Counted from the first letter of the stretch, positions 4,392 to 35,285 are shown. The stretch is 64,000 nt of DNA from Pirellulales bacterium (GCA_038210495.1 JBBQWR010000007.1:1-64000); one strand, 5' to 3'. The notes: generated from the letters alone by a model not told the origin. Translations and numbers: made by a program.

Positions 4392-5189
4392 ATGCGCTTC
4401 GATGTCCTCACGTTGTTCCCCGGTATGTTCCCGGGCTACTTGGGGCAAAGCCTGCTGAAGCTGGCGATCGAGCGGGGCTTGGTGGATGTGCGACTGCACA
4501 ACATCCGCGACTGGGCCAAAGGACGACATAAAGTAATGGACGATCGTCCCTACGGGGGCGGACCCGGCATGATCCTTAAGGTCGAGCCGGTGGTCGAATG
4601 CGTCGAAGCGATTCGGGCGGAAAGTGGCGATGAGTCAACGGGTGGCGATGAGTCAACGGGTGGCGATGTCTCAACGGGTGGCGATGATTCACCAGGTGGC
4701 GGCGGCTCAATCGGCCCGGGCCATCTGATCGTGCTCACGCCTCAGGGGCGCCGGCTGACGCAGCCGATCGTCGAAGAGTTAGCCGGGCACAAGCGATTGG
4801 TTTTGCTCTGTGGTCGGTACGAGGGATTTGACGATCGGGTGCGGCAAATTCTCGAGCCCGATGAATTGTCGATCGGCGATTTTATTTTGGGAGGTGGCGA
4901 GGTCGCGGCGATGGTGGTCATCGACGCGGTGATTCGCCTCCTGCCGGGAGTGTTGGGAGACGAGCAAAGCGCGGCGTGCGATTCGTTTTCCGGCGTCGAT
5001 CGATTATTGGAACACGCGCAATATACACGCCCTCGCGAGTACCGCGGCCTGACCGTGCCCGAGGTGCTGCTGGGGGGCAACCACGAGGAGATCGCCCGCT
5101 GGCGACAAGAGCAGAGCGAGCAAAAAACAGCCGCTCGAAGAGCAAACGACGAATGTCTAGTCAATGACGAATGCTCAAATGACGAATGA
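4392..5189 (+). CDS. trmD: tRNA (guanine37-N1)-methyltransferase TrmD with an internal Gly/Asp/Ser/Thr repeat insertion
   Basis: MRFDVLTLFPGMF...YGGGPGM...LLCGRYEGFDDR are TrmD hallmarks. The insertion GDESTGGDESTGGDVSTGGDDSPGGGG is encoded by a 21-bp tandem repeat at ~4624-4704. The stop codon lies inside a hairpin arm at 5181-5193. Confidence 0.9.
   Translation: MRFDVLTLFPGMFPGYLGQSLLKLAIERGLVDVRLHNIRDWAKGRHKVMDDRPYGGGPGMILKVEPVVECVEAIRAESGDESTGGDESTGGDVSTGGDDSPGGGGSIGPGHLIVLTPQGRRLTQPIVEELAGHKRLVLLCGRYEGFDDRVRQILEPDELSIGDFILGGGEVAAMVVIDAVIRLLPGVLGDEQSAACDSFSGVDRLLEHAQYTRPREYRGLTVPEVLLGGNHEEIARWRQEQSEQKTAARRANDECLVNDECSNDE
4624..4704 (+). repeat. 21-bp tandem repeat (~3.8 copies) inside trmD, encoding (GDxSTGG)n
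   Basis: ggcgatgagtcaacgggtggc repeated with point variants; read directly from the sequence. Confidence 0.8.
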
Positions 5190-5300
5190 CGAACACTCGC
5201 AACTTGAGGCCTTCGTCATTCGTGTTTCGCCTTTAGACATTGATTAGACCTTCGTTATTAGACATTACATATTTGACTTAGACATTGCGAATACGAACGA
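5141..5300. repeat. Intergenic block of TGACGAA(TG) heptamer-like repeats and TTAGACAT repeats, including hairpin 5181-5224
   Basis: gacgaatgtctagtcaatgacgaatgctcaaatgacgaatgacgaac... then cttcgtcattcgtg; ttagacat occurs 3 times. A closely related block lies at 35071-35285. Confidence 0.6.
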
Positions 5301-5317
5301 ATTCAAGGAATCATGCC

Positions 5318-5722
5318 ATGAGTCAGCAAATTCTTGCTTTGGTCGAAAAGAGCAGTCTGAAGGCCGAGCCGCCGAGGTTCGAAATCGGCGATACGGTCGA
5401 CGTCCACACGCGGATTCTGGAAGGCGAAAAAGAGCGAATCCAAATCTTCTCGGGCGTCGTCATTGCCCGCAGCGGCTCCGGCACGCGAGAGATGTTCACG
5501 GTCCGCCGGATCGTGCAGAGCGAAGGGGTCGAGCGCAAGTTCCCGCTCCACTCGCCCAAGATCGCCAAGGTCGAGGTCAAGCGGTCGGGCGTCGTTCGGC
5601 GAGCGAAGCTGTATTTCCTCCGCGATCGCATCGGCAAGGCTGTCCGGTTGCGCGAACGCCGCGGCGAAAATGTCGTCGAAGGTTTGGCCAGCGTCCCCAA
5701 GTCCGGCAAAAAGTCGAAGTAG
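5318..5722 (+). CDS. rplS: 50S ribosomal protein L19
   Basis: MSQQILALVEK...FEIGDTVDVHTRI...RRAKLYFLRDR is typical L19. AAGGA lies upstream of the ATG. Confidence 0.9.
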   Translation: MSQQILALVEKSSLKAEPPRFEIGDTVDVHTRILEGEKERIQIFSGVVIARSGSGTREMFTVRRIVQSEGVERKFPLHSPKIAKVEVKRSGVVRRAKLYFLRDRIGKAVRLRERRGENVVEGLASVPKSGKKSK

Positions 5723-5754
5723 CGGCGGCGGTCAACCCGCCTATTTCCTCCCCC

Positions 5755-6198
5755 ATGCGGCGTCGCTCCATGCGCCTGCTCGACAACCTACAGAGCGTCT
5801 GGCGCGACTGGTTCGGCCCGAAGACGCTCGGGCAGCAGGGCGAAGTCATCGCCGCCCGCTATCTGAAAAAGCTCGGCTATAAAATTATCGCCCGGGGCTC
5901 GCACGTCCATCGGGGCGAGATCGACGTCATCGTCGTCGACGTGCGGACTATCGTTTTTGTCGAGGTGAAAACGCGGCGGTCGCACGATCGCGGCCATCCC
6001 GCCGATGCTGTCGGCCGCGAAAAACAATATCGGCTAACTCGATTGGCCATGGTCTACCTGAAGCGAAACGGTCTACTCGAATGCCAAAGTCGCTTCGATG
6101 TCGTAGCCATCACCTGGCCGAAGACGCAACGCCGGCCGATAATCGAGCATTTCAAGAATGCATTCGAGCCCACGTCGCAGGGGCAGATGTTTTATTGA
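5755..6198 (+). CDS. YraN family endonuclease-like protein (UPF0102)
   Basis: GEIDVIVVDVRTIVFVEVKTRRS core motif. The position downstream of rplS matches the common trmD-rplS-(rnhB)-yraN neighbourhood. Confidence 0.7.
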   Translation: MRRRSMRLLDNLQSVWRDWFGPKTLGQQGEVIAARYLKKLGYKIIARGSHVHRGEIDVIVVDVRTIVFVEVKTRRSHDRGHPADAVGREKQYRLTRLAMVYLKRNGLLECQSRFDVVAITWPKTQRRPIIEHFKNAFEPTSQGQMFY

Positions 6199-6421
6199 CG
6201 GACTTCGGCGGCCGCCGAAAAACGACGCGCAGGGCGTGAGAATCGCCCGAAGCACACGACCAAAACGTTGCTATTTACCGAAACAAGTCCTAGAATTTTG
6301 GAGTGATCCATTCTTAGCGCCAGCGGCAGCTTGCGCGATTGCGAGCCTTTTTTGTTCGCACAACGACTTCGGCGGCCTTCCGTCCCCAGGTTGTCGCCGC
6401 CGATTTTCCGGAGCCGGCGCC

Positions 6422-6940
6422 ATGCAAGCAATCCATCTCAGCACAGCCATTGATCGAGGCAGCGAAGTCCAACGAGGCGAGTTGACGATCAACGCCGCCT
6501 TTCTCCAAGAGATCAAAGAAGATAACCGCGAGTTGCGTGAATTGCTCGCCGATTGCCTCGCGGCTTGCGAGCCGGCCGGCTGGCGGCGAACGATCGACCC
6601 GATGAAGCTCACCCGGCTGCTCGGCAAGCTGCGGGATCAACTGGGTATGCATTTCGCGCTCGAGGAAGCCTATGGCTATTTCGACGACGCCGTGTCGGTC
6701 GCCCCCCAGATCAGCCAACGAGCGCTCGAGCTTCGCCAGCAGCATCGCCCTTTGTTCGTGGAAATGTGCCAACTGGTGGACGAGACCGAGCAATTGCGCT
6801 ACCACGAACCCACGAGCGTTCACTGGCAGGATATCGCCGAGAACTTCTTCAATTTCCACGAGCGCTTCCGCCAGCACGAGGCGGCCGAAGACCAACTGAT
6901 CATGCAAATGATCAACGAAGAAATCGGCTGCGGCGACTAA
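6422..6940 (+). CDS. Hypothetical protein, possibly a hemerythrin-like HHE cation-binding domain
   Basis: Start chosen at MQAIHLS. H-x3-E and H...H...E spacing (HFALEEAYGYF; HWQDIAENFFNFHERFRQHEAAED). Assignment is weak. Confidence 0.45.
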   Translation: MQAIHLSTAIDRGSEVQRGELTINAAFLQEIKEDNRELRELLADCLAACEPAGWRRTIDPMKLTRLLGKLRDQLGMHFALEEAYGYFDDAVSVAPQISQRALELRQQHRPLFVEMCQLVDETEQLRYHEPTSVHWQDIAENFFNFHERFRQHEAAEDQLIMQMINEEIGCGD

Positions 6941-6952
6941 TGCCCCGTGGCG

Positions 6953-6980
6953 AGCGGGGAGCGTAAGCTCCCTGTCCCCG
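6953..6980. repeat. REP-like palindromic element GAGCGGGGAGCGTAAGCTCCCTGTCCCC (hairpin GGGAGC-GTAA-GCTCCC)
   Basis: Lies 13 nt after the stop codon. Other family members at 15039-15068, 19808-19835, 40705-40730 and 58953-58980. Confidence 0.6.
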
Positions 6981-7112
6981 ACGCAATCTCCTTCTCACGC
7001 GCATTCGTGTTCGAAGGTTCGCCGCAATCGTTTTCCGCCCGACTTCGGCGTCCATTCCCCTTGCCCTGGGCTAGTTTGTTGTGCCCCTTCGGGGCATAAG
7101 CAATGGCGAAAC

Positions 7113-8837
7113 CTACTTTACCGCCACCGGCAACCGATACACCGCATACGAAGGGTTCTCATATTCCGCCTTGGCATTCCATCGCGGCATGTCCGGCAAT
7201 TGTTGCACGATCGCATAGTGCGCACGATATTGACTCGCCAACTCGTTGAGGCGGGCCGGCGTCAATTGCCCCAGCGATTCGCGCCATAGCGTTGGCGGCA
7301 GATCGGGCGACAGACCGTGAATATCGCTCAGCCGCTGAGCCCATTGTTTGATGCTCGCCGCGTCCTGCGGGATGTCTTTCCAGTTCACCACTTCGGCGCG
7401 CTCGGCGTGCCAGCGGAGCGTCGCCGAGAGCCGCGGCGTGAAAAATACCGCGTCCGGCGGCGTGTTGTTTTTGATCCACTCGCATGCTTTCAGCCAATCG
7501 TCGTAATTCATATTTTTGTCCGACCGCGGCACAACCGGCGCGGCGTTGTTTGCAAGCAGCGAAATCGGCAGATGCTGCGTTTGAAAGCCCAAGTCGCCGA
7601 GAACGATCAGCGCGAGCCCTGCGACCCAATAGTGTGCGACGAGCAAGCCGGATTGTCGGGGGCCAATGCGGGCTTGCCCAGCAGCGCCGCCTGTAATCTC
7701 GCTTGACGAAGCACTGCTGGACAAGCCAGTCGTGGCGCCCCATCCTATTTGCGCGAGCCACCACAAGCCCACGAGCGACACGCCCATGGGAATCAGCACA
7801 TCGGTCATGCGGAACCAATAGAATCGCAACAGCGCCGCGGCAATGTCGGGCGACATGTACGACAATCCCACGAGCGCATATCCGGCCAACGTCAGGAGCA
7901 ACGAAGCGCTCGCGAACCATCGCAACCGTCGCTGGGCCGGATCGCTCGGCGCGGCGGTCACCATCGTGAGCCACAGCCCGCAAAGCAATAGATGCCGGCT
8001 GGGAAATCCTTCTCGGAATTTGTCGGCCGATAGATGATGCGGCAGTCGCTTCAGATAAACGTCATTCGCAAGCCGAACCGTCTCCGCATCGACTCCGCGG
8101 TTGAGCGAGAGCGCGAACCACAGCCCTGGCAAAGCCAGTAAGAATCCAGCTGCGAGTCCCGGCGCGATCTTGCGGAGCGGCGGACGAGCATCGCCTGCTC
8201 CGAGCCACGCCACGACCGCGGCCAGCGTCGACCAGCCGCCGACGATGACATGCAGCGAACTGGCCAAGCCGAGAAAGATCCACGCTCGGTTCCACCGCTC
8301 GCGCAGGATCGCTTCCAAAGCCAGAAACACCAGCGCATACGAAAAGCCCTTGGCTTCGATTCCCCCGATGACCCACTCGCCGGCCATGTGGGCATTTTCG
8401 TTAAGCAGAACAAACAAGCCGGCGGTCAACACGGCAAACCACGCTCTGGGTAGCACGACCCAGCTAAGCCGCCGCCAAGTCCAGGCCAGCAGGGCCCAAG
8501 TGACGAGCCGCCCCACCCAGGCCACTTGCTCGAGCGGGAGCCATTTGATCAGCCAGCCGAACGTCCAATAAAATACCTGATGGGCATCGGCCGTATTGAC
8601 GAAAAAGTCGTTCGCGCACCAAGCCGGATTCCAATAATGCTTGGCCTTGGACAAATAGTGACATTCGTTGACATCCGGCACGGGCCAGGCGCCGTGCAAC
8701 GCAAACACGCCAAAGATCAACACAACCTCGGCCGCGGCCAACCAAATCCGCCCGGCGGATGAGACTCGGGCCGGCTGCGAAGCGGAGAGAACGTCATTCA
8801 TGCGGGCGGCGCCGGTTTCGACCAGGAGATTGTGCAA
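7113..8837 (-). CDS. Large polytopic membrane protein, possibly a GT-C-fold glycosyltransferase (ArnT/PMT-like)
   Basis: ~12 predicted hydrophobic helices, an acidic first-loop motif (DVNECHY) and a ~170-aa C-terminal soluble domain. The start codon is uncertain; an internal Met at ~8801 is possible. Confidence 0.5.
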   Translation of the reverse strand: MHNLLVETGAARMNDVLSASQPARVSSAGRIWLAAAEVVLIFGVFALHGAWPVPDVNECHYLSKAKHYWNPAWCANDFFVNTADAHQVFYWTFGWLIKWLPLEQVAWVGRLVTWALLAWTWRRLSWVVLPRAWFAVLTAGLFVLLNENAHMAGEWVIGGIEAKGFSYALVFLALEAILRERWNRAWIFLGLASSLHVIVGGWSTLAAVVAWLGAGDARPPLRKIAPGLAAGFLLALPGLWFALSLNRGVDAETVRLANDVYLKRLPHHLSADKFREGFPSRHLLLCGLWLTMVTAAPSDPAQRRLRWFASASLLLTLAGYALVGLSYMSPDIAAALLRFYWFRMTDVLIPMGVSLVGLWWLAQIGWGATTGLSSSASSSEITGGAAGQARIGPRQSGLLVAHYWVAGLALIVLGDLGFQTQHLPISLLANNAAPVVPRSDKNMNYDDWLKACEWIKNNTPPDAVFFTPRLSATLRWHAERAEVVNWKDIPQDAASIKQWAQRLSDIHGLSPDLPPTLWRESLGQLTPARLNELASQYRAHYAIVQQLPDMPRWNAKAEYENPSYAVYRLPVAVK

Positions 8838-9162: not shown

Positions 9163-10596
9163 TTGAAAAAGAGATTGCGATCCGGGTTGCTCGCTTTGGG
9201 ATTGGTTGTCGCCTGCTCGAATGCGGCCGGCGCGGCGGACGGAGAACGGCTGGATTTACCGATCTGGTCCGGCGGACCGTTTGTCCTGATGCTGTTGGGA
9301 ATCGCAGTTCTTCCCCTCGCGGCGCCGCATTTCTGGGAGCGGAATCGCAATAAGGCGATCTTCTCGGCTCTGATGGCTGCGCCTGTCGTTGTTGCCCTGT
9401 TGGCGCTGGGCGGAGGCGCCAAGTCACCGGCCAACATCTTCGAACGGCCGGGCGCCCAGGCGCTACTGCATGCATCGCAAGATTATCTGTCCTTCATTAT
9501 CCTGCTGGCTTCGCTGTACACGATCTCCGGCGGAATCGTGTTGTCCGGCGATATTCGAGCCAAGCCGCTGACGAACGTGCTGATTTTGGCGATCGGCGCC
9601 GCGCTGGCCAACGTCATTGGAACGACCGGGGCGAGCATGCTACTGATTCGGCCGCTGCTGCAAATCAACAGCGAGCGCCGTAACACGCGGCATTTGCCCG
9701 TGTTCTTCATCTATGTCGTCGGCAATCTCGGCGGACTGCTGACGCCGCTTGGCGACCCACCGCTGCTGCTCGGGTTTTTGCATGGAATCCGTTTTACATG
9801 GACGCTATCGCTCTGGCCTCATTGGCTTTTGGCGAATGGGATCGTGCTAACGATTTTTGCGATTTGGGACTCGATCGCTTATCGGCGCGAGAGCCCCGAG
9901 GCTATTCGCTTGGACAACATCCGGATCGAGCCGATTCGAGTAAGAGGACTTTTGAACGTGCCGCTGCTCGCCGGCATTCTGCTCGCCGTCGGTTTTCAAT
10001 CGGCCGAGTTGGCCGAAGGCGCGAGAGCTTGGGTTGGCCGGTTCGTGCCGTGTCCGAATTTAACGCTACGATTCCCTTGGGGCGACCTCGCGATGATCGC
10101 GATGGCCGGTTTATCGCTAGGTTTCACGCCGTCGGCGTTGCGGAAGTCCAATGCGTTTACGTGGAAGGCGATCGTCGAGGTGGCGGTCCTGTTCGCCGGC
10201 ATCTTCTTGACGATGGTTCCCGCGCTGGGCTGGATAGCGCAGCATGGCGACCGATTCGGCGTGACCAAACCGTGGCAATATTTTTGGCTGACCGGCGGCC
10301 TGTCGTCGGTTTTGGATAACGCGCCAACCTATTTGACGTTTGCCACGTTGGCGGCTGGCCCCCACGATTTTGCCTGGCTTATGACGAACAAGCCGTTGGT
10401 TCTAGCGGCGATCAGCACCGGGGCCGTGTTCATGGGAGCCGTTTCCTACATCGGCAACGGCCCCAATTTCATGGTCAAAGCGATTGCCGACGAGTCTGGT
10501 CTCAAAACACCGTCATTCTTTGGCTACTTGACGTATTCGGGACTCATTCTAATTCCGACGTTTATCGTCGTGACGCTCGTCTTCTTTGTGAAGTAA
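9163..10596 (+). CDS. Ion transporter of the ArsB/NhaD/CitMHS permease superfamily, with an N-terminal signal-like segment
   Basis: 477 aa with ~12 TM segments. Internal repeat with a GDPPLLLGF-type motif typical of NhaD/ArsB-like permeases. Confidence 0.6.
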
Positions 10597-11406: not shown

Positions 11407-11422
11407 TCGAGATTGCGATCAC

Positions 11423-11518: not shown

Positions 11519-13147
11519 TCGGCGATGCGAGACAAATGCTGCCCCCGCCAGGGTCAGCCCGAGCGCGCCGGTCACGAGCAGAATGCACAGACCGGCCAGT
11601 TCGTTTTGAATGTTGAAGTGCAACAGTTGGGAGATGCGCACGCCGAGCGTCATCACTCCCGGTGGCACGACGAGGATCGTGGCCGACAATTCCCCGATTC
11701 CAATAATCACCGCAGCTAACCAAGCCCAGGCGATCGCCTGGCAGCGCATCGGCAAGACCACGGCGAAAAATCGACGCCCGGCGCTGGCGCCGTCCAACGC
11801 CGCGACGTCGAGCAGGTCTTGGGGCACGGTTCGGAAGACGTGCCAAAGTAGCAGGATGGCGATCGGCAGTCCGCGAATCGCCTGCGCGATGGCCACGACG
11901 GCGATCGTGCGGTCGTAGAGAAAATTCAAAAGCGGCAGAGAGCGATCGTTAAAAAGCTCGATCAGCCAACCTCCCACCAGAGGTCCCGGAATAGCCATCC
12001 CCGCCACCGCGACAAGCAACGCCGCCTGGGCCATCAAGCCGCTGCGCCGAGCTAACCAACCAAGCGGCGTGGCGATCATCAAGACCAGGACGCCAGCCGT
12101 CGTGGCGATCGTCAGCGACCAGCCGATTTCGCGGTGATATCGCAGCGCGCTGCCCGCGACAATTTCCCAACATCGGCCTGCCGACCAACTACGCAGATAT
12201 CCACCAACGCTCGGTGCGACGGTCATCCCCGCTTTGCAAATCAAATTCAGTAGCGGCACACCCACCACCGCCAACCCAATGGCCACCACTAATATGCCCA
12301 GCGGCCAGCGAGCCCGGCCTAGCCGATACACCAGCGGTGGACGAGCCGTCCACTGCGGCCGCCAACTGGCGATGGCGCTACAGAGCCATGCGCCGCATGC
12401 AATCAAGCATCCGGTGAGAGCCACGCCAATCAGCGTCGGCGGAGGAGTTTGTCCCGGCTCGGCCAAGAGCGCGAACTGCGTGTAAACCTCCTCGGCATAG
12501 GTCCGCAGTCGTGTGGCGCCGACCTGAAATAAATCGGTCACGGTCATATCGGTGGCGACACCGATCGCGACCCAGATCGCCGCCAGACCAGTTGCCGGCA
12601 GAGCGTGCGGCAGCGTCACGCGCCACAGCACTTGCCCGGGCGACCCATCGAGCAGCGCCATCTCCTCGAGCTCCGGTTCTACGAATCGGACCACCAATCC
12701 CACGATAAACGCAACCCAGGGGATCGCGGCCAGTCCATGCACCCAAATCGCGCCGGCCCAGCCTTCGAGCAGCCCCGGCTCATAGGGCCCGGCTGTGAAC
12801 AAGGTATACCAGCCCGACATGCCAAATCCGGCTTGCCATCCGGCGGCTTGAAGATAAAGCGGCATGACCATCAAGCTGGCTAACAATCCGGCCACGAGCG
12901 TGCGAAACGGAAGGTCAGTTCGAAACAGCGCGAGTCCCAGAAGCACACCAACCAGCAGGCCGATCGCCAGCGTTCCGGCGACAAGAAACAGCGTGTTCTC
13001 AACGAGCGACCAGCTTCGAGCATCGGCTGAGAGTCTGGCGATAAGCAGCGGAGCGGCGGCGACAACGACGTAGGTCAGGCCAGTGGCTTGACGAGTTGCC
13101 ACGCGATGCCAGAATTTGAGTAAACACATCGTGGCGAAGCGAAGCAT
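11513..13147 (-). CDS. ABC transporter permease with two fused transmembrane domains (iron(III)/thiamine FbpB-like type)
   Basis: 544 aa. Two repeated ABC-TMD units with EAA-like loops (e.g. LLDVAALDGASAGRRFFAVVLP). No cognate ATPase or binding protein lies adjacent in the window. Confidence 0.7.
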   Translation of the reverse strand: MLRFATMCLLKFWHRVATRQATGLTYVVVAAAPLLIARLSADARSWSLVENTLFLVAGTLAIGLLVGVLLGLALFRTDLPFRTLVAGLLASLMVMPLYLQAAGWQAGFGMSGWYTLFTAGPYEPGLLEGWAGAIWVHGLAAIPWVAFIVGLVVRFVEPELEEMALLDGSPGQVLWRVTLPHALPATGLAAIWVAIGVATDMTVTDLFQVGATRLRTYAEEVYTQFALLAEPGQTPPPTLIGVALTGCLIACGAWLCSAIASWRPQWTARPPLVYRLGRARWPLGILVVAIGLAVVGVPLLNLICKAGMTVAPSVGGYLRSWSAGRCWEIVAGSALRYHREIGWSLTIATTAGVLVLMIATPLGWLARRSGLMAQAALLVAVAGMAIPGPLVGGWLIELFNDRSLPLLNFLYDRTIAVVAIAQAIRGLPIAILLLWHVFRTVPQDLLDVAALDGASAGRRFFAVVLPMRCQAIAWAWLAAVIIGIGELSATILVVPPGVMTLGVRISQLLHFNIQNELAGLCILLVTGALGLTLAGAAFVSHRRT

Positions 13148-13377
13148 CCCGGAGGGATGCCAGACGGTAGCCGGCGGTAAGGCCGTACGCGGCCGACACC
13201 GCCGGTTTGGCGATAGCGCGAGCTATTCGACCCCGGCAGGGGCCGCAGAATTGCGCTAACAGGGGGCCGGTTGTCTGCGACCCCTGCCGGGGTCCATTCA
13301 TTCGTTGAGACGTGTAAACCGGCGGTGTCGGCCTAAAGGCCTCTGCCGCCGGCTACCATCTGGCATCCCTCCGGGAT
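13145..13377. repeat. ~233-bp nested imperfect palindrome (33-bp terminal inverted repeats plus two inner stem pairs); MITE-like or structured RNA
   Basis: CATCCCGGAGGGATGCCAGACGGTAGCCGGCGG (13145-13177) is the reverse complement of 13345-13377 with 1 mismatch. Inner pairs: GGCCGACACCGCCGGTTT with AAACCGGCGGTGTCGGCC, and GACCCCGGCAGGGGCCGCAG with CTGCGACCCCTGCCGGGGTC. Confidence 0.6.
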
Positions 13378-13527
13378 GCGTTTCCGATCGTCAAGTCACA
13401 CCGGAAAGTTACCTAATTCGACAGCGCACTTTCGCTGACCCGTCGCTGAATTCGTGAGAATTCAGATTCCTGCGGCGGACAATATCTCGGAATTCTCACG
13501 AATTCCGCTACGAAATGCACGATAGTG

Positions 13528-14931: not shown

Positions 14932-15038
14932 ATGCGTGCATTCCTGTGAGAATTTTTGCCGTGGCGCCGGTGGGATGGCAGCCGGCGGTCGGGCGGCGGT
15001 TTTGTTTTCGCTTGTTGTGTGTCGGTTTCGTTGCGTCT

Positions 15039-15068
15039 GGGACAGGGAGCTTACGCTCCCCGCTCGCC
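15039..15068. repeat. REP-like element GGGACAGGGAGCTTACGCTCCCCGCTCGCC (reverse orientation of the 6953 family)
   Basis: Lies 8 nt downstream of the stop codon (on the minus strand) of the 15076..15834 gene. Confidence 0.6.
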
Positions 15069-15075
15069 TATGAGG

Positions 15076-17250: not shown

Positions 17251-18708
17251 ATGCAGCGCTTCATTTTAATTTTTGTCGCGTCCGGGTTGATTACATTCGG
17301 TGCTTCTCGATCTCGGGCCGACGACGATCGAGAACCCGCTGAACCTATCGCCCAGAACGAACCGGCGCTGAACGAACCGGCGCTGAACGAACCGGCTCAA
17401 AACGAATCGGCTCAGCTCGACGCCGGTCCCGAGGCGGCCAGCCACTGCGTTACGATCCTAGGCGATGCTCTACAGTCGCTCGCTCTCGAAAAATGGATCG
17501 CGGCCATTGCGGATTGCAAATCCATCGTCGAGCAGTTGGACTTGCAATCAGTTCGAGCCCAATTGAACGATCGCAGCGCCAAAGCCGTTGGCGTCTGGCG
17601 TCTGGCGAGCGCCGAGCGGGCAAAGCTCGTCGTCAAACCAAACTTGCCCATCGCGCCGGAGCTTGCCGCTCTGCGCGACAAAATCCATAAGGCAGTGGCC
17701 AACTACGAGCAGCGGCCATTGAACGCCGCGCAGCAATCTCCTTGGGAGGTCATGCACCGCATCGTGGCCTACGGGATCGGAACCGAAATTCGCCGCGATG
17801 GCCCGACCGGTGACAAAGTCAACGCCATCGGCTGGCTGCTGTGGGGCAATCGCGCGGCGAGCGAGCCGCTGATGGTCGTGTCCGCGGGCCGCCCCCTCTG
17901 CCGCGTCGGACCAGGGCTACAAGGTCATCCGGGGCAATTCCTCGGTATGCTCGCGCAGTCGCAAGTCAGCATTCTCACTCCATTCCAACTCGACGGCCAC
18001 TCGTTCACCGTCGCCGATCTCGTGGAGCAAGAAAAGGCCGACTGCAGCACGCACATCGAATTGACCTTCAAACTGATCGCCCTCTCGTACTATTTGCCGA
18101 GCAACGAAACCTGGATCGCCAAAAATGGCGAGCGATGGTCGATTTCGCGGCTGGTGCAGGAAGAAATTCAACAGCCGCTGCGGACCGGCGCCTGCGGCGG
18201 AACTCATCGGCTGTTTAGCCTAAGCAATGCCTACCGTTATCGCGCAAAGCAAGGCTTACCGATCGACGGTGAATTCAAGCGGGCCGAGAAGTACGTCCGC
18301 GACTACCATCGTTACACGCTGGGCGCGCTGCAAAACCCGGACGGCAGCTTCAGCACCGAATGGTTCACCAAGCCGGCGAACGCGGACGACCCCGCGCGGA
18401 AGATTCAAACGACCGGCCACATGATGGAATGGCTCGCGCAGAGCCTGCCGGACTCCGAGCTGCGCGATCCGCGCGCGATCAAGACCATCGATTTTCTGGC
18501 GACGCAACTGTCGCAGGACCCGGTGAAGGATTGGAGCGTTGGCCCGCTCGGCCACGCCCTGCATGCCCTGATTATTTACGATCAGCGAGCGTTCGGCGAA
18601 GCCAATCCAGCGATCGCATCTTCCGTCGCCAAGGCGAATCGACCGGCCAACATGGCAACGCGGCCCCTGTATCCGCCGGTCCCGCGGAGCGGCGTCGACC
18701 AATGGTAG
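17251..18708 (+). CDS. Secreted hypothetical protein with an N-terminal NEPAL pentapeptide repeat
   Basis: Signal peptide MQRFILIFVASGLITFGASRSRA. A 15-bp tandem repeat at 17355-17415 encodes NEPALNEPALNEPAQNESAQ. The remainder has no confident domain assignment. Confidence 0.5.
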   Translation: MQRFILIFVASGLITFGASRSRADDDREPAEPIAQNEPALNEPALNEPAQNESAQLDAGPEAASHCVTILGDALQSLALEKWIAAIADCKSIVEQLDLQSVRAQLNDRSAKAVGVWRLASAERAKLVVKPNLPIAPELAALRDKIHKAVANYEQRPLNAAQQSPWEVMHRIVAYGIGTEIRRDGPTGDKVNAIGWLLWGNRAASEPLMVVSAGRPLCRVGPGLQGHPGQFLGMLAQSQVSILTPFQLDGHSFTVADLVEQEKADCSTHIELTFKLIALSYYLPSNETWIAKNGERWSISRLVQEEIQQPLRTGACGGTHRLFSLSNAYRYRAKQGLPIDGEFKRAEKYVRDYHRYTLGALQNPDGSFSTEWFTKPANADDPARKIQTTGHMMEWLAQSLPDSELRDPRAIKTIDFLATQLSQDPVKDWSVGPLGHALHALIIYDQRAFGEANPAIASSVAKANRPANMATRPLYPPVPRSGVDQW

Positions 18709-19737: not shown

Positions 19738-19746
19738 GGGGAAGTA

Positions 19747-19776
19747 GTCGGGAGTAGGGAGACGGGAGTCGGGAGT
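19747..19776. repeat. Heptamer array GTCGGGA/GTAGGGA/GACGGGA (4 units), 10 nt 5' of the korB start
   Basis: gtcgggagtagggagacgggagtcgggagt; the same units recur at 23430-23452 and 23527-23554. Confidence 0.6.
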
Positions 19777-19807: not shown

Positions 19808-19835
19808 AGCGGGGGGGCGTAAGCCCCCTGTCCCA
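19808..19835. repeat. REP-like element GAGCGGGGGGGCGTAAGCCCCCTGTCCC
   Basis: Variant of the 6953 family, located between korA and korB. Confidence 0.55.
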
Positions 19836-19857
19836 TCGGTCAACACTAATCAGACAC

Positions 19858-23409: not shown

Positions 23410-23429
23410 GGTTTTGCCTCTGGCAAAAA

Positions 23430-23554
23430 GTCGGGAGTCGGGAGACGGGAGTTGAAGCAGCCTCTGCGGCGCCAAGATTGGAGACAGCATAACTTGCGGC
23501 GTCGGGCCGGCGAAGCCGGCTTGTCTCACTCCCGACTCCCGACTCCCGTCTCCC
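23430..23554. repeat. Inverted pair of GTCGGGA-type heptamer arrays (23430-23452 and 23527-23554) forming a ~120-nt hairpin between two minus-strand genes
   Basis: gtcgggagtcgggagacgggagt ... actcccgactcccgactcccgtctcccc. The left arm is ~21 nt 5' of the enoyl-CoA hydratase ATG. The right arm overlaps the last codons of the 23526 gene. Confidence 0.6.
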
Positions 23555-23891
23555 CACTATTTCCGTCCGGCGCGGGTAGCTTCAGGTCCAAAATGGCCGT
23601 GCCGAGCAGCTTGCCTTGCGTGTCGATGCGTAGCGACTGACTGGCGCCGCCGCCGAGTGCGTTGTAGAGCACGAAATTCAGCGCCCAAATTTTCGGCAGC
23701 TCGAATCGCTCGACTCGATCGCCGCCGAGCCCGCAAAAGTATTCGGCGACTCTCTCGGATGTCAGCTCGCGCTGCAGGTAGGCAAACCCGGCCGGCGTGT
23801 ACGCTACGACGCCGATGTTCGCGTGGTTGCCCTTGTCGCCGCTGCGAGCATGAGCGATTTGGCCAAGGGTAATGGTAGCAGTATTGAACAT
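23526..23891 (-). CDS. Hypothetical protein, possibly DUF4387-like (AtuA-associated small protein family)
   Basis: Start chosen at MFNTATITL (ATG 23891). ARSGDKGNHANIGVVA ... FELPKIWALNFVLYNALGGGASQSLRIDTQGKLLGTAILDLKLP recalls DUF4387 proteins. Recall-based and weak. Confidence 0.4.
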   Translation of the reverse strand: MFNTATITLGQIAHARSGDKGNHANIGVVAYTPAGFAYLQRELTSERVAEYFCGLGGDRVERFELPKIWALNFVLYNALGGGASQSLRIDTQGKLLGTAILDLKLPAPDGNSGETGVGSRE

Positions 23892-25006: not shown

Positions 25007-25007
25007 C

Positions 25008-25029
25008 GTGGCGGGTGGCGGGTGGCGAG
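25008..25029. repeat. Heptamer array GTGGCGG x2 + GTGGCGA, directly abutting the AKR start codon (sense strand TCGCCACCCGCCACCCGCCAC-G-ATG)
   Basis: Same heptamer family as the array at 58988-59051. Confidence 0.6.
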
Positions 25030-31200: not shown

Positions 31201-33912
31201 GACGAAGACGCCACGGGCAAGCTCGGCTCGCTCGCTTGGAGCCGATCGTCGGCCGAGATTCGGTCTCTCTATGCGCTGGCGCTGGAACAAGTGCTGGCCG
31301 ATAGCCCCAAGCTCAAACTGCAAGTCGATTGGCTGATGACCCATCGCACGGGCCATCGCTGGTCGCCCGACAAAGCCACCGGGCCGGCCACGCTCGCGCT
31401 CGCCCGCTGGTTCGCCAAGACCCAGTTCGACGACGAGCATTACAAGCTGACCGTCACGGTCAACGACGTGGAAGTGAAGACGCTTGACATCGACAAGAAT
31501 TCGGGCGGTCTGGTCGTCGATGTGCCCGCCCACGCGCTAGTCGCCGGCAAGCAGCGGATTCACTTCGGGCTCATCGGCCGCGGCCGATATACGTTCCAAG
31601 CGATTCTGAGCGGCTTCGTGGATGCCGACAAACTGAAGGGCACGATGCAAGGAGTCGTCGTCAACCGGTACTATGAGCCGGCCCCGATCGAGCTCGACGG
31701 CAAGGAAATTCCTCGTGGATTCGGCGTCCTGCAAGGCTCGTACACGTCGTTCCGCAATCCGCTCACGCAACTGGCCGTCGGCAAGCGGGGACATGTCGAA
31801 CTCCAGATCGATCGCCCGTACGAACCGACGATGCGAGAAGAATACTGGGTCGTTACCGAGCCCCTGCCCAGCGGAGTAACCGTGATCGAAAACTCGATCA
31901 GCGGCAATTTCGAGCGGTTCGAGCTCGGCGCCGGCGCGATCACCTTCTATCTCCGGTCGTCGACGACATCGAGCCGGATTCACTTCGACGTCCACGGCTA
32001 TCTGCCGGGCCAATATCGCGCGGCGCCCACCGTGGTCCGCGACGCCTATCGGCTCGACAAGATGGTCGTGGCCGCCGCGACAAAACTGACCGTGCTGGCC
32101 CTCAACGCCAAGAGCGCCGACGCCTATCGCCTCACGCCGCAGGAATTGTATGAGCTGGGCAAGCGATACTTCGAGAAGGCGGATTACAAAGCGGCCGGAG
32201 AGCATCTCACCGAGCTAATGGCCAAGTGGAACATCCAGCCGGAGGTGTACAAGGAAACGGCCCGGATGCTCTTGGACATCCACTTGCAAACCGGCCCGCC
32301 GGCGCAGGTCGTGCATTACTTCGAGATCATCAAGGAGAAGTGGCCGGAGCTCGAATTCCCGTTCGAGAAAATCGTCAAGGTGGCGACCGCTTATCACGAG
32401 ATGGGCGAGTACGAGCGGAGCTACCTGGTCTTCCGCGCCACGGCCGAGAGCAGTTTTCTGCGCGAAGCGGCCGTCGGCGGGTTCTTGGAATCGCAGGGTG
32501 AATTTCTGCGGAGCATCGCGTTCATGAACCGGCTGCTGGCCGAATATCCCCCCGAGCCGTATGTGGTGGCGGCGACGTTCGCCCTCTCGCAGCGGGTCTA
32601 TGGCATGGCGCCCAAGGCGGCCGATGACCCAAAACTCCGCGAGAAGAAGATCAACAAGGTCGATCTGATCGGGCAGGCCGTCGCTATGCTCGATAATTTT
32701 CTGTCCGATTACCCCGACGACCCGGCCGCCGATCAGGCCTCGTTCTCGCTAGCCAATGCCCTGTTGGAACTTAAGTCGTACAAGGAAGTGATCGCCCGGG
32801 CGACCAAATTCGCCGCCCGGTATCCCAAGAGCGATTATCTCGATAGTTTCTGGTACATCGTGGCCTACGGTCATTTCGCCTTGGGGGAGCATGAGCAGGC
32901 CCTGACGATGGCCAAGAAGGTGGCCGAGGCCAAGCGGATCGATAAATTATCGGGCCGCGAGACCGAAAGCCCCAACAAATGGGAAGCGATCTACATCATG
33001 GGCCAGGTGTACCACAGCCTGGGGAAGGCGGCCGAGGCGATCGTCGAATATACGCGAGTCGCCGATCGGTTCGCCGACGCGAAGGAGGCCATCGCCTATT
33101 TCACGCGCAAGGAAATCACATTGCCCGAAGTGACGGTGATCCGCCCGGCTGACGCTGCCGAGGTGGAACTCAAATTCCGCAATGTCGCCACCGCCGACGT
33201 GAAACTGTACCGAATCGACCTGATGAAGTTCGGCCTGCTGAAGCGTAATCTGGCCGGGATCACGCAGATCAATCTGGCGGGGATTCGACCGTTCTTCGAG
33301 AGCAAGCTCGAGCTCGGCGATGGGAAGGATTTCCGCGACCGCACGCACAAGATCGCGCTGCCGATCAAGGAAGAAGGCGCCTATCTGATCGTCTGCCGCG
33401 GCGGCGATCTATATGCCAGCGGGCTGGTGCTGCTCAGCCCGCTGTCAGTCGAAGTGCAAGAAGACGCCTCGGCCGGGCAGGTGCGCGTCACGGTGAAGAA
33501 CGTGCTCAAGGACACCTACATCTCGGACGTCCAGGCCAAGGTGATCGGCAGCCGGAACGAGGACTTCGTGTCCGGCGAAACGGATCTCCGCGGCGTGTTC
33601 GTGGCCCAAGGGGTGCGCGGCGCGAGCACGGTGATCGCCCAAGCGGACAGCGGGCGTTATGCGTTCTTCCGCGGCAAGACCGAGCTTGGCCCACCGGAAC
33701 CGGCCGCATCGCCGCCGGCTCCGGCCAAGCAGTCCGAACAAACCGACAATCAGATGGAAAAGCCCCAGCAAGGCGAGAATCGCCGGGGCGACAATGGCCT
33801 GCTCGACAATCTGCAACGGGGCAACAACTCGTTGCAAGACTTCAACAACGACAAGCTGCAGAATTTCTATAAGCAGAACAAGAGTGGCGTGAAGGCGAAG
33901 GAGGCGTATTGA
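25249..33912 (+). CDS. Giant secreted TPR / alpha-2-macroglobulin / TPR fusion protein (2887 aa)
   Basis: Signal peptide. N-terminal TPR repeats (YbgF-like), then MG-type beta-sandwich repeats, then an A2M/TED-like region (LVSSQLDDGSWSWGGQG alpha-alpha toroid motif) and receptor-binding-like domain (cf. the 1..619 fragment). A second TPR block and a C-terminal beta-rich domain follow. No obvious CxEQ thioester motif was seen. Low-complexity Gln/Ala/Gly insert at ~29150-29800. Confidence 0.8.
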   Translation: MKRMFSVAAAVLSITVGLGVTLRLVGADAKEAPAPPETKKPAAAADGGLFAVPHVPTKISELLADHKYADAIAAIDAARKDAKAKDAPWDYLAYLKGRALHLDGQYDAAVKQFTAMEKEFPGSPWARRARFGKAVSLARKGDFRAAELIYRTEVEYLLSSARKQEIADLYLEFADAYFKPKDEIQHKPDYQKALEFYLKALEVGPQNDRRAEIELQTARSYQLLNQLPEAAKRFSQFIKDHPGLPAVIEARFRLGEVQLAQSQQQEARRTWQDLLAAHADSKSERIPEAAYRLAFTYNLPNPQTDEELSLGISTLESFIKNYPDHKLASQAHLLIANSYIARGRYEDAVKSLIRFLADKRYADREEVADARNLLGRSYQLQRKFTAALEAWRDYLTKHPSHHAWSDVQREIVNTEYLMADDKAQAKQYDEARKLWNDFLAKYPLDPRDPQILYLFGWMNYQQERFPEANSDWRRLASKYPGTEPAQRGQLMIAATLEGKLGKLEEALQEYKKVQPGNCQNLAQMAINRLTAKSMAIVTERVFRSDETPKIKLTSRNIESVTVRAYKVDLETYFRKMHVVQGVEGLDIALIDPDKTFEFKIPKYNEYQQVENEIELPLFKDIAKDAANADAKDAGKLTPSGAWAVTVSSKTLEATTLVLQSDLDLIVKSSRDELFVFAENMRTGKPWPGVKLLLSNGQQVFGEVACGADGVLKQSFKELKGAGDVRVFALADGGVASNVVSLQGVGVAQGLVDKGYIYTDRPAYRAGQIVHVRGILRRAVDDNYTVEKGKKETVEVYDPRSRLIWQEETKLSDVGSLHMYFTLPATSPVGPYRVVVHDDEGHSHAGGFTVHEYQIDPVRLSVDIDRHVFYRGEEIEGTIRAAFYYGAPLADREVTYKLADGRVNSAKTDDKGEVHFKLPTRDFRETQTLPLVVTLAERNLTTVQNFFLATQGFAISMSTVRPVYVAGETFEVTLKAMDAENKPLAQKLTLNVLERTVVDGKVGEKQVDTFEVATDAKDGTARKTLKLEKGAEYILRAEGIDRFKNPVVGQYRIKISDENDSVRLRILADRHTYKVGDAADVQLHWREKPALALVTFQGARVLDYRLVQLETGANKLAIPMSAKLAPNFDLTVAVMTDAGRLEKGLGAGDGTREKKAGGNDAVKLPESPLKVAKAPAKRFHEASSPFSVERQLTLKLETKRKEGAKGAIRPGEEVELVIVATDPQGKPVAAEVSLGMVEQALLNMFPPNVPAIDEFFKGVPRQSALHTSTSVVFGYFPATHPIDRHLLSEVQRQEIAKEEAESTAVRTRLLLQAQQQAANQSDATPALVIQEEAAEQLLGSEQPRAQAGALFTDGSTGIQAGGIAGSGGLGNVDLALDGVHAYGWTGDQHNSGEAAANEDRTTAAVAYTDQAAIPFPVKPGIQYPTHAQGRTLTRDRMRYSQLQVDPSGGVGGGASAGGWAANSNRPAASTPIGRTPQLGAVPHMNRLFDMPPQLGRTSGELEYALNGGDLSDNYAVVAQDGSQRNWSFGANWALGDGGRKELAAKRVAELQTAIANKALVTPQRGLVETAYWNPAIVTDDKGRASVTISMPDQSTAWKLSAKGITADTLAGEGELDLVVKKDLFGELKLPTAFTDGDDAQILATIHNGLLDKGQIEVTLKTTMGGKSTEEKKTIDVTATGLSELTFPLAVRRPTADDKAEKKVDAKKEDNPADDSQVTIELSVSSGAERDVVRRVVPIHPYGMSVYATAGGAASSDTTVWVEAPKDMPLAAPSLQILVGPTIQQSLLDVLFGTAPTCEIDVLRSASALDSPASDLMAALALQKLINTTRDAGNPQARLLDDRVRSAISLLVSSQLDDGSWSWGGQGLQAQAAQGHRLGTARVIWALSLAKSAGYKLPGEQFEKGLTFLQSQIATTAETDYETKAVLLHALAAAGRGDFTLANRLYRNRPALTTAALVYLSLALAEMDHQPMAEDLLKLLDQRNLDDEDATGKLGSLAWSRSSAEIRSLYALALEQVLADSPKLKLQVDWLMTHRTGHRWSPDKATGPATLALARWFAKTQFDDEHYKLTVTVNDVEVKTLDIDKNSGGLVVDVPAHALVAGKQRIHFGLIGRGRYTFQAILSGFVDADKLKGTMQGVVVNRYYEPAPIELDGKEIPRGFGVLQGSYTSFRNPLTQLAVGKRGHVELQIDRPYEPTMREEYWVVTEPLPSGVTVIENSISGNFERFELGAGAITFYLRSSTTSSRIHFDVHGYLPGQYRAAPTVVRDAYRLDKMVVAAATKLTVLALNAKSADAYRLTPQELYELGKRYFEKADYKAAGEHLTELMAKWNIQPEVYKETARMLLDIHLQTGPPAQVVHYFEIIKEKWPELEFPFEKIVKVATAYHEMGEYERSYLVFRATAESSFLREAAVGGFLESQGEFLRSIAFMNRLLAEYPPEPYVVAATFALSQRVYGMAPKAADDPKLREKKINKVDLIGQAVAMLDNFLSDYPDDPAADQASFSLANALLELKSYKEVIARATKFAARYPKSDYLDSFWYIVAYGHFALGEHEQALTMAKKVAEAKRIDKLSGRETESPNKWEAIYIMGQVYHSLGKAAEAIVEYTRVADRFADAKEAIAYFTRKEITLPEVTVIRPADAAEVELKFRNVATADVKLYRIDLMKFGLLKRNLAGITQINLAGIRPFFESKLELGDGKDFRDRTHKIALPIKEEGAYLIVCRGGDLYASGLVLLSPLSVEVQEDASAGQVRVTVKNVLKDTYISDVQAKVIGSRNEDFVSGETDLRGVFVAQGVRGASTVIAQADSGRYAFFRGKTELGPPEPAASPPAPAKQSEQTDNQMEKPQQGENRRGDNGLLDNLQRGNNSLQDFNNDKLQNFYKQNKSGVKAKEAY

Positions 33913-33944
33913 CGAGGATTGTGGTAGGTTATTTCGCGTTTCAG

Positions 33945-34172
33945 GCGCAAGCGCGCGAGCTTACGCCCCGAAGGGGCAGCCACACGAAAGCCCAGGGCAA
34001 CGCCCTGGGCTGAGGCGCCTCCACCAGTGCAAAGCCCTGAAGGGGGCGAAACAATTGTCGCGGTTGTGACGCCCTGTCAGGGCTTAAACGCACGTCGTTT
34101 TTCAACCCAGGGCGTTGCCCTGGCTGATTTGTTGCGCCCCGTTGGGGCTCCGGACTTCTCGAATCGGAGCGC
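33945..34172. repeat. Cluster of seven GC-rich mini-hairpins between convergent genes (bidirectional terminator region)
   Basis: The seven hairpins are gccccgaaggggc, cccagggcaacgccctggg, gccctgaagggggc, gccctgtcagggc, ccagggcgttgccctgg, gccccgttggggc and ctccg...cggag. The cccagggcaacgccctggg and ccagggcgttgccctgg hairpins are reverse complements of each other. Confidence 0.55.
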
Positions 34173-34184
34173 TGGCGTCTAGCC

Positions 34185-35072
34185 TCACGCACCCGCTTTG
34201 CGAAAGTTCAGCAGCGGCCACAGTTGGCCTTCCCGCCGCGCGTAGAGAATCGACACTAACTCGCCTTGGGCGTCGATGGCCGCAAGTTGTGCGCTGTCGT
34301 TCGTTCCGAAAGGCGATCCGAACGGCAAACCGTGGATGACGAGTTCGACCTCCACATCACTTAGCGCGAGCGTCGGCAGCGAGTCGAGCGCCGCGCGGGG
34401 CGAAAGGATGCGACTCGGCAATGTCTCGGCGTTTAGCGTCCGCGGATCGCAGGCGTCCGCCACATGGAATGGCCCGATCGCCGTGCGCTGCAGAGCCGAC
34501 ATCACTGCCGCGGTTCCCAGCGACTCGGCAAGGTCGCGACCGATCGACCGCACGTACGTGCCCGAACTGCATGCGATCTGGAGCGTCAGTTCCGGATAAT
34601 CGTAGCTCTCGATCCATAGCTTATGCACCGTGATGGCCCGCGACTGCAATTCGACGTCGCGGCCCTTTCTCGCCAGCTCGTACGCTCGACGGCCGGCGAC
34701 TTTGATCGCCGAAAAGATCGGTGGCCGCTGCTGAATCTCGCCGATCATGGCCGCGGCGGCGTGCTGTATCTCGTCGAGCGTTGGGATCGGCGGATCGATC
34801 AGCTCGGTGATCTCGCGCTCGATGTCCTCCGACTCGCTCGAACGTCCGAGCAAGAATACGCCGCGATAGCGCTTCGGCATCCGCTGCACATATTCGACCA
34901 ATCGCGTCGCCGGGCCAAGGCATGCAATCAGGACTCCCGAGGCGATCGGATCGAGGGTGCCAGCATGTCCGATCTTCGCCGGCTTGACAAGATGTTTGAT
35001 CCGCCCGAGCACGGCTGCCGACGACAACCCGACGGGCTTATTGAGATTCAGAAGGCCGAACATGGGGGGCAA
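34185..35072 (-). CDS. truB: tRNA pseudouridine(55) synthase TruB
   Basis: FGLLNLNKPVGLSSAAVLGRIKHL...HAGTLDPIASGVLIACLG is the TruB catalytic Asp motif region. Confidence 0.9.
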   Translation of the reverse strand: MPPMFGLLNLNKPVGLSSAAVLGRIKHLVKPAKIGHAGTLDPIASGVLIACLGPATRLVEYVQRMPKRYRGVFLLGRSSESEDIEREITELIDPPIPTLDEIQHAAAAMIGEIQQRPPIFSAIKVAGRRAYELARKGRDVELQSRAITVHKLWIESYDYPELTLQIACSSGTYVRSIGRDLAESLGTAAVMSALQRTAIGPFHVADACDPRTLNAETLPSRILSPRAALDSLPTLALSDVEVELVIHGLPFGSPFGTNDSAQLAAIDAQGELVSILYARREGQLWPLLNFRKAGA

Positions 35073-35285
35073 ATGACTAATGACGAATGTCTAATCAATG
35101 ACGAATGACGAAGCTCGAATGACGAAGGACTGAGATCACGTTTTTGCAGTAATGCTTAGGTCGACTAATTTTCTCGACATCACAAACGTGCTCGAAGATT
35201 CGACATCAGACCTTCGTCATTCGTCAATTAAGCATTAGTCATTGATTAGACATTGGGTATTTCGTCATTCGTCATTCCTCATCAA
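35071..35285. repeat. Intergenic TGACGAA/TTCGTCA heptamer and TTAGACAT repeat block, related to 5141-5300
   Basis: aatgacgaatgtctaatcaatgacgaatgacgaag ... cttcgtcattcgtcaattaagcattagtcattgattagacattg ... ttcgtcattcgtcattcc; it shares a 30-nt near-identical segment with the 5141-5300 block. Confidence 0.6.

Follow-up and report, generated by a model that had tools for sequence, protein, structure and literature searches.

We analysed a 64-kb stretch of DNA from a Pirellulales bacterium (GCA_038210495.1 JBBQWR010000007.1:1-64000; hereafter the window, in which all positions are counted) and describe two intergenic repeat blocks, block 1 (5141-5290) at the trmD-rplS junction and block 2 (35063-35285) at the junction of a larA-like gene and truB. 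The two blocks are homologous imperfect palindromes built of heptamer words. They belong to a family that is multi-copy and intergenic, fills spacers in many Planctomycetota genomes whatever the function of the neighbouring genes, gains and loses whole words between close relatives and has, in at least one genome, been duplicated as a complete unit. On balance, both blocks are probably copies of a dispersed foldback short-tandem-repeat element that spreads by copying, drifts by slippage and is tolerated where it is harmless. With this AATGNCN foldback, a new family joins a kind of heptamer repeat that is already known but whose role lacks explanation.

An earlier sequence-only reading of the stretch had called the blocks AT-richer than their surroundings. 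This is borne out by GC contents of 0.407 (block 1) and 0.413 (block 2), that is 41% in the blocks against 61% in the window (61.1%; 500-nt flanks: 0.60-0.62). The near-identical 30-nt segment that it reported is indeed shared, but the exact stretch comprises 26 nt with one R position. The exact 26-mer GACGAATGTCTARTCAATGACGAATG lies at 5148 and 35082 and nowhere else in the window, and its expected count in 100 shuffles of the window was 0. With up to two mismatches allowed, TGACGAATGACGAA gave eight matches compared with 0.67 expected, all eight within the two blocks. Tandem Repeats Finder (TRF) placed period-7 arrays at 5163-5193, 35072-35130 and 35261-35282, and an nhmmer profile of the arm, run over the 64-kb window, returned four arms only, namely those of blocks 1 and 2. 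We conclude that the block features are genuine and far above chance. The blocks are made up as follows:

5141-5193, + strand: first arm of block 1 (nhmmer arm profile 5135-5198, E 4.9e-13)
5194-5211, + strand: loop of block 1, 18 nt, cactcgcaacttgaggcc, with a small 4-bp hairpin inside it (RNA fold)
5212-5290, + strand: second arm of block 1 (nhmmer 5269-5202 on the - strand, E 2e-7)
35063-35125, - strand: truB-side arm of block 2 (nhmmer 35068-35125, E 5.4e-14)
35126-35210, - strand: loop of block 2, ~85 nt of unique sequence with small internal hairpins
35211-35285, - strand: larA-side arm of block 2 (nhmmer 35276-35211, E 6e-14)

Each block thus runs from an array of AATGNCN words through a loop (18 or ~85 nt) to an array of NGNCATT words. 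The first arm of block 1 reads AACGACG AATGTCTAGTC AATGACG AATGCTCA AATGACG AATGACGAA. The second is the reverse-complement array (TTCGTCATT, TTAGACATT, GATTAGACC, TTATTAGACATT, TTAGACATT), TTAGACATT being the reverse complement of AATGTCTAA and TTCGTCATT that of AATGACGAA; it is more decayed than the first and stops ~30 nt short of the rplS ATG at 5318. In block 2, the truB-side arm (on the + strand AATGACT AATGACG AATGTCTAATC AATGACG AATGACGAAGCTCG AATGACGAAGG) is the 3′ arm on the transcribed - strand and ends 8 nt from the truB ATG (35063), and the larA-side arm contains the stop codon of the larA-like gene (35282-35284). The TGACGAA heptamers and the TTAGACAT/GATTAGACATTG units named in the sequence-only reading are all present, but they are one word family on opposite strands and not two repeats: TTAGACAT and GATTAGACATTG are the reverse complements of AATGTCT and AATGTCTAATC, and each block is therefore a single palindrome, albeit imperfect. 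The two blocks could be aligned with each other, and both with block 2 in reverse complement; the inverted matches between them measured 60 nt (83% complementary) and 42 nt (90%). Nothing similar to the loop of block 2 was found in any related locus compared, and we rejected this 85-nt loop as a shared module because its sequence is unique to block 2.

Word statistics were drawn from 44 arms with 226 words from the window and related loci. The words were gathered by their AATG start, so that positions 1-4 are invariant by construction; the consensus was AATG[A/T/c]C[G/T/c], with C at position 6 in 93% of the 226 words and positions 5 and 7 variable. Same-base frequency had its maxima at lags of 7 (0.59) and 14 (0.49), and words followed each other at spacings of 7 (98 cases), 11 (33), 14 (32) and 8 nt (17). 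The spacing order 7, 11, 7, 8/14, 7 was common to arms across sites and genomes; AATGTCTAATC is the characteristic internal 11-nt unit, and 8- and 14-nt units occur also. The arms are not free-running microsatellites but have an ordered architecture. The elements are ~110-230 bp long and non-coding, with the AATG array first and the CATT array second: head-to-head and tail-to-tail arrangements stood at 16:0 when strict words were counted, and the arm profile recognized 18 paired elements. The single tail-to-tail case was locus L047, one of the distant trmD loci described below.

We searched the 22-mer AATGTCTARTCAATGACKAATG from the arm against 185,579 species genomes and found 17 loci in other genomes, compared with ~4 by chance (our own estimate from database size). 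Three were from Planctomycetaceae, four from one Phycisphaerales metagenome-assembled genome (MAG), two from a Gemmataceae MAG, one from Pirellulales, two from a Phycisphaerae MAG and two from Planctomycetota without finer assignment. The other three carried non-Planctomycetota titles, an assignment that comes from the record titles only (one locus each in Parcubacteria, L008; Omnitrophota, L016; Gracilibacteria, L017). At L017 the flanking open reading frames (ORFs), for a thiamine pyrophosphate (TPP) enzyme and a fumarase, are intact when the standard code is applied, in which UGA is a stop. This would be odd in Gracilibacteria, and the bin assignment of this locus may be wrong. All 17 loci contained AATG-word arrays and most an inverted partner array. 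The possibility raised at the outset, that the 30-mer occurs at the two sites of the window only and is unconserved, is thus contradicted by 17 related sites elsewhere. Exact matches of 31-32 nt were shared between the window and five other genomes, and 35238-35276 of block 2 is a 39-nt exact match to a locus of the Phycisphaerales MAG (L009), including the non-word AATACCC. AATGTCTARTCAATGACKAATG had no match among viral contigs, and blastn with block 2 returned no match among plasmids, a result to which the low-complexity filter may contribute. Among Logan contigs of the same organism (SRR19962015), L001 starts at ~5164 in block 1 and L102 at ~35106 in block 2; the breaking of two short-read contigs inside the blocks is expected of a multi-copy repeat.

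Comparison of orthologous sites revealed that the element comes and goes. L019, a relative with 78% identical TrmD on a 2.1-Mb contig, has no element in its trmD-rplS spacer and three elements within 20.7 kb, at rpsP-trmD, argB-argD and between an NTP-transferase gene and prs (phosphoribosyl pyrophosphate synthase). In L020 (TrmD 73% identical) no element was present in 20.8 kb, including the region upstream of rplS. L101, a close relative of L019, has an element at the same rpsP-trmD position, within flanks that are ~90% identical; compared with the L019 copy, there is one extra word (+7 nt), two words are lost (-14 nt) and the loop has a deletion of 33 nt. Upstream of truB, synteny is not kept in relatives, and the element is absent in L103 and L104.

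Copying of the unit was seen in the Gemmataceae MAG, in which two contigs (L005 and L011) have ~105 nt in common at ~90% identity between unrelated flanks. The common stretch consists of one arm and ~65 nt of non-repetitive loop. Loop sequence was also common among the copies of the Phycisphaerales MAG. In an efflux operon of locus L004, two consecutive junctions each hold a complete element, 2.2 kb from one another; we rejected this pair as a composite transposon, as OEP and CusB genes lie between the elements and there is no transposase.

These observations bear on whether each block was made in place by heptamer slippage without any copying from site to site, with the likeness of the blocks being convergence from a small vocabulary; on this view, seven nt is the unit length at which slippage is most likely. 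Seven nt is the commonest TRF period in the window, accounting for 12 of the 38 rows and a wide range of units, and 7- and 14-nt indels occur in relatives. As cited in two later papers (PMC4679880, PMC4692102), Mrazek (2007) found heptanucleotides to be the most abundant class of long simple sequence repeats and proposed polymerase slippage. However, the ordered, non-periodic spacing recurs across sites and genomes, exact matches of 26-39 nt include non-word bases such as AATACCC, and one genome has the same arm and unique 65-nt loop at two of its loci. The arm-plus-loop duplication and the 39-nt exact match largely refute a local microsatellite origin, which we consider very unlikely.

According to Pfam, the genes on the block 1 side are ordered ffh-rpsP-trmD-rplS-UPF0102 on the + strand, and on the block 2 side a larA-like gene is followed by truB on the - strand. 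A tRNA/tmRNA search returned none. The genes next to the blocks, by Pfam, are:

4392-5189, + strand: trmD, whose C-terminal tail (NDECLVNDECSNDE, then stop) is encoded by the element
5318-5722, + strand: rplS (L19), the gene downstream of block 1
34185-35063, - strand: truB, the gene downstream of block 2
35282-36556, - strand: larA-like gene (Lar_N and LarA_C), upstream of block 2

A set of 120 TrmD homologues end in ...KTxERRADLL plus a few residues. The TrmD of the window departs from them after RRA and continues with NDECLVNDECSNDE and a stop, which is the first arm of block 1 read in frame: this arm encodes the last 16 codons of trmD and the TGA stop (5187-5189). The sequence-only reading had traced the odd tail of TrmD to repeat insertion, and the alignment of C-termini supports this view, in which the NDECLVNDECSNDE tail and the stop codon of trmD would have come with insertion of the element. 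The overlap with the trmD C-terminus that it ascribed to both blocks holds for block 1 but not for block 2. NDE-containing tails are found in several other TrmD homologues, and homologue P0037 ends in NPVNPVNPV, as a 9-mer array (AATCCTGTN)n would encode; overlaps of repeats with the 3′ end of trmD are therefore apparently recurrent in this group.

When arms are read in AATG orientation, stops occur in all three frames in 32 of 44 arms, and ATG/GTG codons number 5.3 per arm as against 0.25 in CATT orientation. The idea that the right arm is free of stop codons proved false (3.4 stops per arm), and only the scarcity of ATG/GTG stands, which concerns the arm beside the downstream start codon. 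Most arms thus present stops in all frames when read inward from either side, so that insertion at the 3′ end of trmD would just swap one short tail for another. Separately, trmD contains an in-frame 18-nt tandem repeat at 4624-4710 (GTGGCGATGAGTCAACGG, 4.3 copies), which adds GGDESTGGDESTGGDVSTGGDD to TrmD and cuts the Pfam match in two; the protein has 265 aa in the window and 225-236 aa in the closest homologues.

The sequence-only reading had offered a promoter or operator module for translation-apparatus genes as one explanation. Both blocks do lie just upstream of rplS and truB, as it stated, but block 2 lies equally downstream of the larA-like gene. A search for sigma-70-like promoters (-35/-10 hexamers at 16-18 nt spacing; the tool covers sigma-70 only) found none in 4900-5500 and none in 34850-35500, and thus none in either block. 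Elsewhere, the neighbours of the elements are functionally diverse (isocitrate dehydrogenase, fumarase, HMGL-like, FolD, CTP synthase, ThuA, HlyD, TsaD, PHP, CNNM and creatininase), most of them metabolic or transport genes. L019 and L020 have no element ahead of rplS, L103 and L104 have none ahead of truB, and both window copies sit inside apparent operons, directly after the upstream stop codon. A module dedicated to translation genes is essentially excluded. We also compared the words by eye with Fur/Zur boxes, integration host factor sites, extracytoplasmic function sigma promoters and attC sites, and none fitted.

As the second arm is a reverse-complement array of the first, a long imperfect hairpin is possible on either strand. 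RNA folds were predicted at -47.3 kcal/mol for block 1 (z -3.2) and -84.3 kcal/mol for block 2 (z -8.7), and in duplex DNA the element could form a cruciform. A host may have selected such a hairpin in mRNA for protection of the upstream 3′ end, for processing of the RNase III type or for translational coupling from stop to start. The strong predicted hairpins speak for this explanation, as does the gene context: where genes were called, the elements separate co-directional genes in most cases, the upstream stop falls within the first arm or no more than 8 nt from it, and the downstream start codon follows 8-30 nt past the last word. There is also an established precedent, since in E. coli the hairpins of repetitive extragenic palindromic (REP) sequences stabilize upstream mRNA.

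Foldbacks made of other words occur at equivalent junctions in relatives, which hints that structure and not sequence may be kept. Upstream of truB, L104 has a foldback of 9-mers at 9883-9988, (GACAGGATT)n followed by (AATCCTGTN)n, of which L103 retains a remnant at ~9930-9965, and at a different junction L019 has (CGCCAAGAT)n followed by (TTCTTGGCG)n at 6499-6586, between AMP-binding and epimerase genes. Two further arrays were noted in passing: (AAATCTC)x5 directly after AATG words in L061 (16665-16720), and a 14-nt, CAGACAGCCATTC-like unit at the trmD-rplS junction of L068 (6640-6740).

The pattern of sequence change argues against selection for a hairpin. In-register complementarity of the arms was 74.2% within elements versus 73.9% between elements of different loci, and therefore shows no sign of pairing kept by compensatory change; neither the in-register comparison nor local alignment detected compensatory covariation between arms. 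The conserved feature is each arm's likeness to a common consensus, not the pairing. Sense and antisense strands had equal fold energies and similar G-U counts, with no G-U bias. Elements were found between convergent and divergent gene pairs too, the nearest large-contig relative (L019) has none at trmD-rplS, and exact sequence conservation across classes is needless for a hairpin alone. A hairpin selected by the host is the main rival to a dispersed element, although on this evidence we think it unlikely.

Intrinsic terminators (a short GC-rich stem with a T-tract after it) were absent from the transcribed strand of both blocks, the only two hits being on the - strand at 5130-5150. In Rfam, which includes ribosomal-protein leaders such as the L19 leader, no family matched the blocks at gathering level. 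At E<=10, both blocks gave only chance matches to C/D-box snoRNA (9-16 bits versus cut-offs of 37-63), because UGACGA resembles the C box. A K-turn or C/D-box was dropped as a candidate, as the UGACGA words are fully Watson-Crick paired.

Conservation of the arm across classes without covariation suggests that the words are read by a protein, which could be a mobilizing enzyme or a host factor, and the arm consensus common to distant Planctomycetota is a concrete bait for such a reader. One form of this idea is that the words are repeated sites at which a host protein binds DNA or RNA (a nucleoid or regulatory protein or a post-transcriptional regulator), recognizing AATGNC every 7 nt. The core of positions 1-4 with C at position 6 and variable positions 5 and 7 fits it and follows the same pattern as the (GGGANTN)n repeats of Xanthomonas. 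Each arm is kept to the consensus independently of its partner, the sequence is conserved over Planctomycetota classes, and binding of S1, Csp or CsrA-type proteins has been proposed by MacGregor for arrays of another heptamer, TAACTGA (PMC4679880). On the other side, we found no candidate protein, the neighbouring genes have no common function, presence of the element at a given junction is not conserved, and no protein-binding leader of Rfam matched. A host binding array seems distinctly improbable to us. A broader reading, which we would call quite unlikely, is a single ancient or horizontally spreading family across Planctomycetota classes, whose arms are ordered sites for a conserved protein; going by record titles, MAGs of Omnitrophota and Patescibacteria would carry it too. 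If it is true, then given the signature of positions 1-4 and 6 that the unit has in common with (GGGANTN)n of Xanthomonas, the excess of heptamer repeats in bacteria could reflect a common mode of reading by protein and not polymerase slippage alone.

We return to the reading that we prefer, a dispersed foldback element. Copies would arise by duplication of the whole unit into new intergenic sites, and the agent could be a transposase or recombination. After insertion, the copy would change locally by replication slippage in steps of 7 nt, and copies would persist only where they do little harm. Effects on expression through an mRNA hairpin, processing or coupling would probably be a by-product and not the reason for the element's existence. 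The sequence-only reading had named a mobile mini-element as its other explanation, which our results support in part. In favour of mobility, the family is multi-copy and dispersed, is present or absent at orthologous junctions and has had arm and loop copied together in one genome; the inverted repeats, small size, non-coding nature and several dispersed copies are traits of miniature inverted-repeat transposable elements (MITEs). Genes between neighbouring copies were ordinary, and the IS4-type transposase adjoining one element (L012) is not flanked by arms.

Several observations weigh against a dispersed mobile element. Alignments of within-genome copies and their flanks revealed no target-site duplication, the ends of the element are not sharp, as similarity wanes word by word at the outer side, and ~0.9 Mb of related-locus DNA contained no transposase or autonomous partner bounded by arms. 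The 64-kb window holds only two copies. A further 80 trmD loci from more distant planctomycetes (636 kb) had few arrays, in L039, L047 and L061, and because only this handful was found, the family is patchy. The foldbacks of other words at the same junctions in relatives could mean that the hairpin itself is wanted there. Finally, a purely selfish repeat would not usually keep 22-39 nt of sequence conserved between classes and possibly between phyla, and the element may have a host function.

The window contains further repeats, and its genome is unusually rich in intergenic palindromes. Other period-7 arrays lie at 626-642, 17589-17607, 19746-19776, 23429-23452, 23528-23558, 25008-25027, 56438-56502 and 58988-59051, nearly all apparently between long ORFs. 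Their units are GC-rich and unrelated to the AATGNCN words (GTGGCGA, TGGCGTC, AGTCGGG/GGGAGTC, GTGGCGG, (AAGCGTG)x9 and (CTCGCCA)x9). Two of these arrays form a second foldback, with (GGGAGTC)n at 23429-23452, a spacer of ~75 nt and (ACTCCCG)n at 23528-23558; the array at 19746-19776 belongs here also, and the GGGAGTC unit resembles the GGGANTN repeats of Xanthomonas. A GC-rich intergenic palindromic family, GGGGAGCGTAAGCTCCCTGTCC and variants, is located at 6949-6986, 15031-15068, 40695-40730, 19813-19848 and 58938-58973, and its copies sometimes adjoin heptamer arrays. Further inverted-repeat families were seen at 673-762 and 7711-7740, at 3464-3564 and 60126-60209, at 13144-13379 and at 48986-49147; they include GGGTGCCACTGCTGGCTTGTCCAGCAGTG, GCTTACTTCGTGCGCGGCTCTAG and 34-nt arms at 97% complementarity, 168 nt apart. 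The only gathering-level Rfam match in the whole window was to group II intron D1-D4 (RF02003; 44078-44218, - strand, 110.7 bits, E 6.7e-24), and a 454-aa ORF at 42395-43759 on the - strand may be a candidate reverse transcriptase of a group II intron.

The elements have practical consequences. In annotation, start codons are misplaced, spurious small ORFs are called and proteins receive false C-terminal tails, as in the NDE-rich ones of TrmD; in assembly, the elements break short-read contigs of Planctomycetota. Several groups of bacteria carry intergenic heptamer repeats in abundance, without a known function.

A literature search by sequence found no paper containing the element in the library searched, and in the literature on repeats or MITEs of Planctomycetes we found nothing specific. 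The closest published description is that of the GGGAATC/(GGGANTN)n repeats of Xanthomonas and the intergenic GGGGA(C/T)T heptamer repeats of Nostoc, which are of the same class (Rehm et al. 2015, PMC4692102). A Xanthomonas genome has about 185 arrays, with 70-75 convergent inverted pairs; the repeats are ~90% intergenic, and most lie between genes of the same direction, close to where the upstream ORF ends. Their site is mostly kept between related species, length and sequence are variable, the functions of the neighbouring genes are random, and the function of the repeats was left unresolved (PMC4692102). As in Xanthomonas and Nostoc, the unit of our elements is a heterogeneous heptamer with positions 1-4 and 6 conserved, and the arrays are short, with ~4 units. 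The likeness to the Xanthomonas repeats extends to the intergenic location near the upstream ORF end, to inverted pairs able to form a stem-loop or cruciform, to random neighbours and to a location that is mostly kept with a varying number of units (here L019 versus L101). Unlike them, the AATGNCN words are AT-rich in a 61% GC genome and no G-quadruplex is possible; foldback is the rule and not the property of some of the arrays, the arms are ordered with an 11-nt unit, and the same 22-39-nt sequence occurs in distant genomes. Elements that cannot form a quadruplex and yet have a unit and behaviour like those of Xanthomonas and Nostoc argue that the quadruplex does not define the class.

Cyanobacterial STRR (short tandemly repeated repetitive) heptamers, for example STRR2 with TTGGTCA, were reportedly described by Mazel et al. 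in 1990 as direct arrays. They resemble our elements as tandem intergenic heptanucleotides, and the STRR2 word, as (GGTCATT)n, is found also in our elements, for example L002, L006 and L039. Unlike such direct arrays, the AATGNCN elements are structured foldbacks. Heptamers of Calothrix are mentioned together with the Xanthomonas repeats (PMC4692102).

The TAACTGA repeats of marine Beggiatoaceae, Cyanobacteria and Bacteroidetes lie a few nt upstream of start codons, including those of ribosomal-protein operons, with no functional pattern among the downstream genes, and their patchy spread across phyla suggests horizontal transfer (MacGregor 2015, PMC4679880). Our elements share with them a stop-rich heptamer, closeness to start codons and a patchy distribution. 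The unit sequences are unrelated, however, and TAACTGA repeats form no foldback, with 169 direct sets versus one indirect (PMC4679880).

REP sequences of the CGTC type have stems of 8-9 bp, loops of 4-5 nt and an unpaired terminal GTAG/CGTC tag (Di Nocera et al. 2013, PMC3733652). Like REP, BIME and REPIN sequences, our elements are extragenic, multi-copy and palindromic, with inverted dimers that yield larger hairpins, and occur within operons. In contrast to REP, their arms are 45-60 nt of heptamer words without a terminal tag, and CGTC occurs only within paired words, so we rejected an assignment to REP or REPIN. No REP-associated tyrosine transposase (RAYT) turned up, though the ORFs of the window had no systematic Y1 transposase screen.

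Bacterial MITEs such as Correia/NEMIS, ERIC/IRU and RU-1 are likewise small non-coding units with inverted arms and intergenic dispersal; our elements differ from them in that no target-site duplication, defined termini or autonomous transposase-bearing relative was found. In eukaryotic Foldback (FB) transposons, the inverted arms are long and consist of short tandem repeats, and this is also the build of the AATGNCN elements. If the protein that reads the words is a transposase, these elements would be a bacterial counterpart of the FB transposons; alternatively, the reader would be a host factor that recognizes words spaced by 7 nt.

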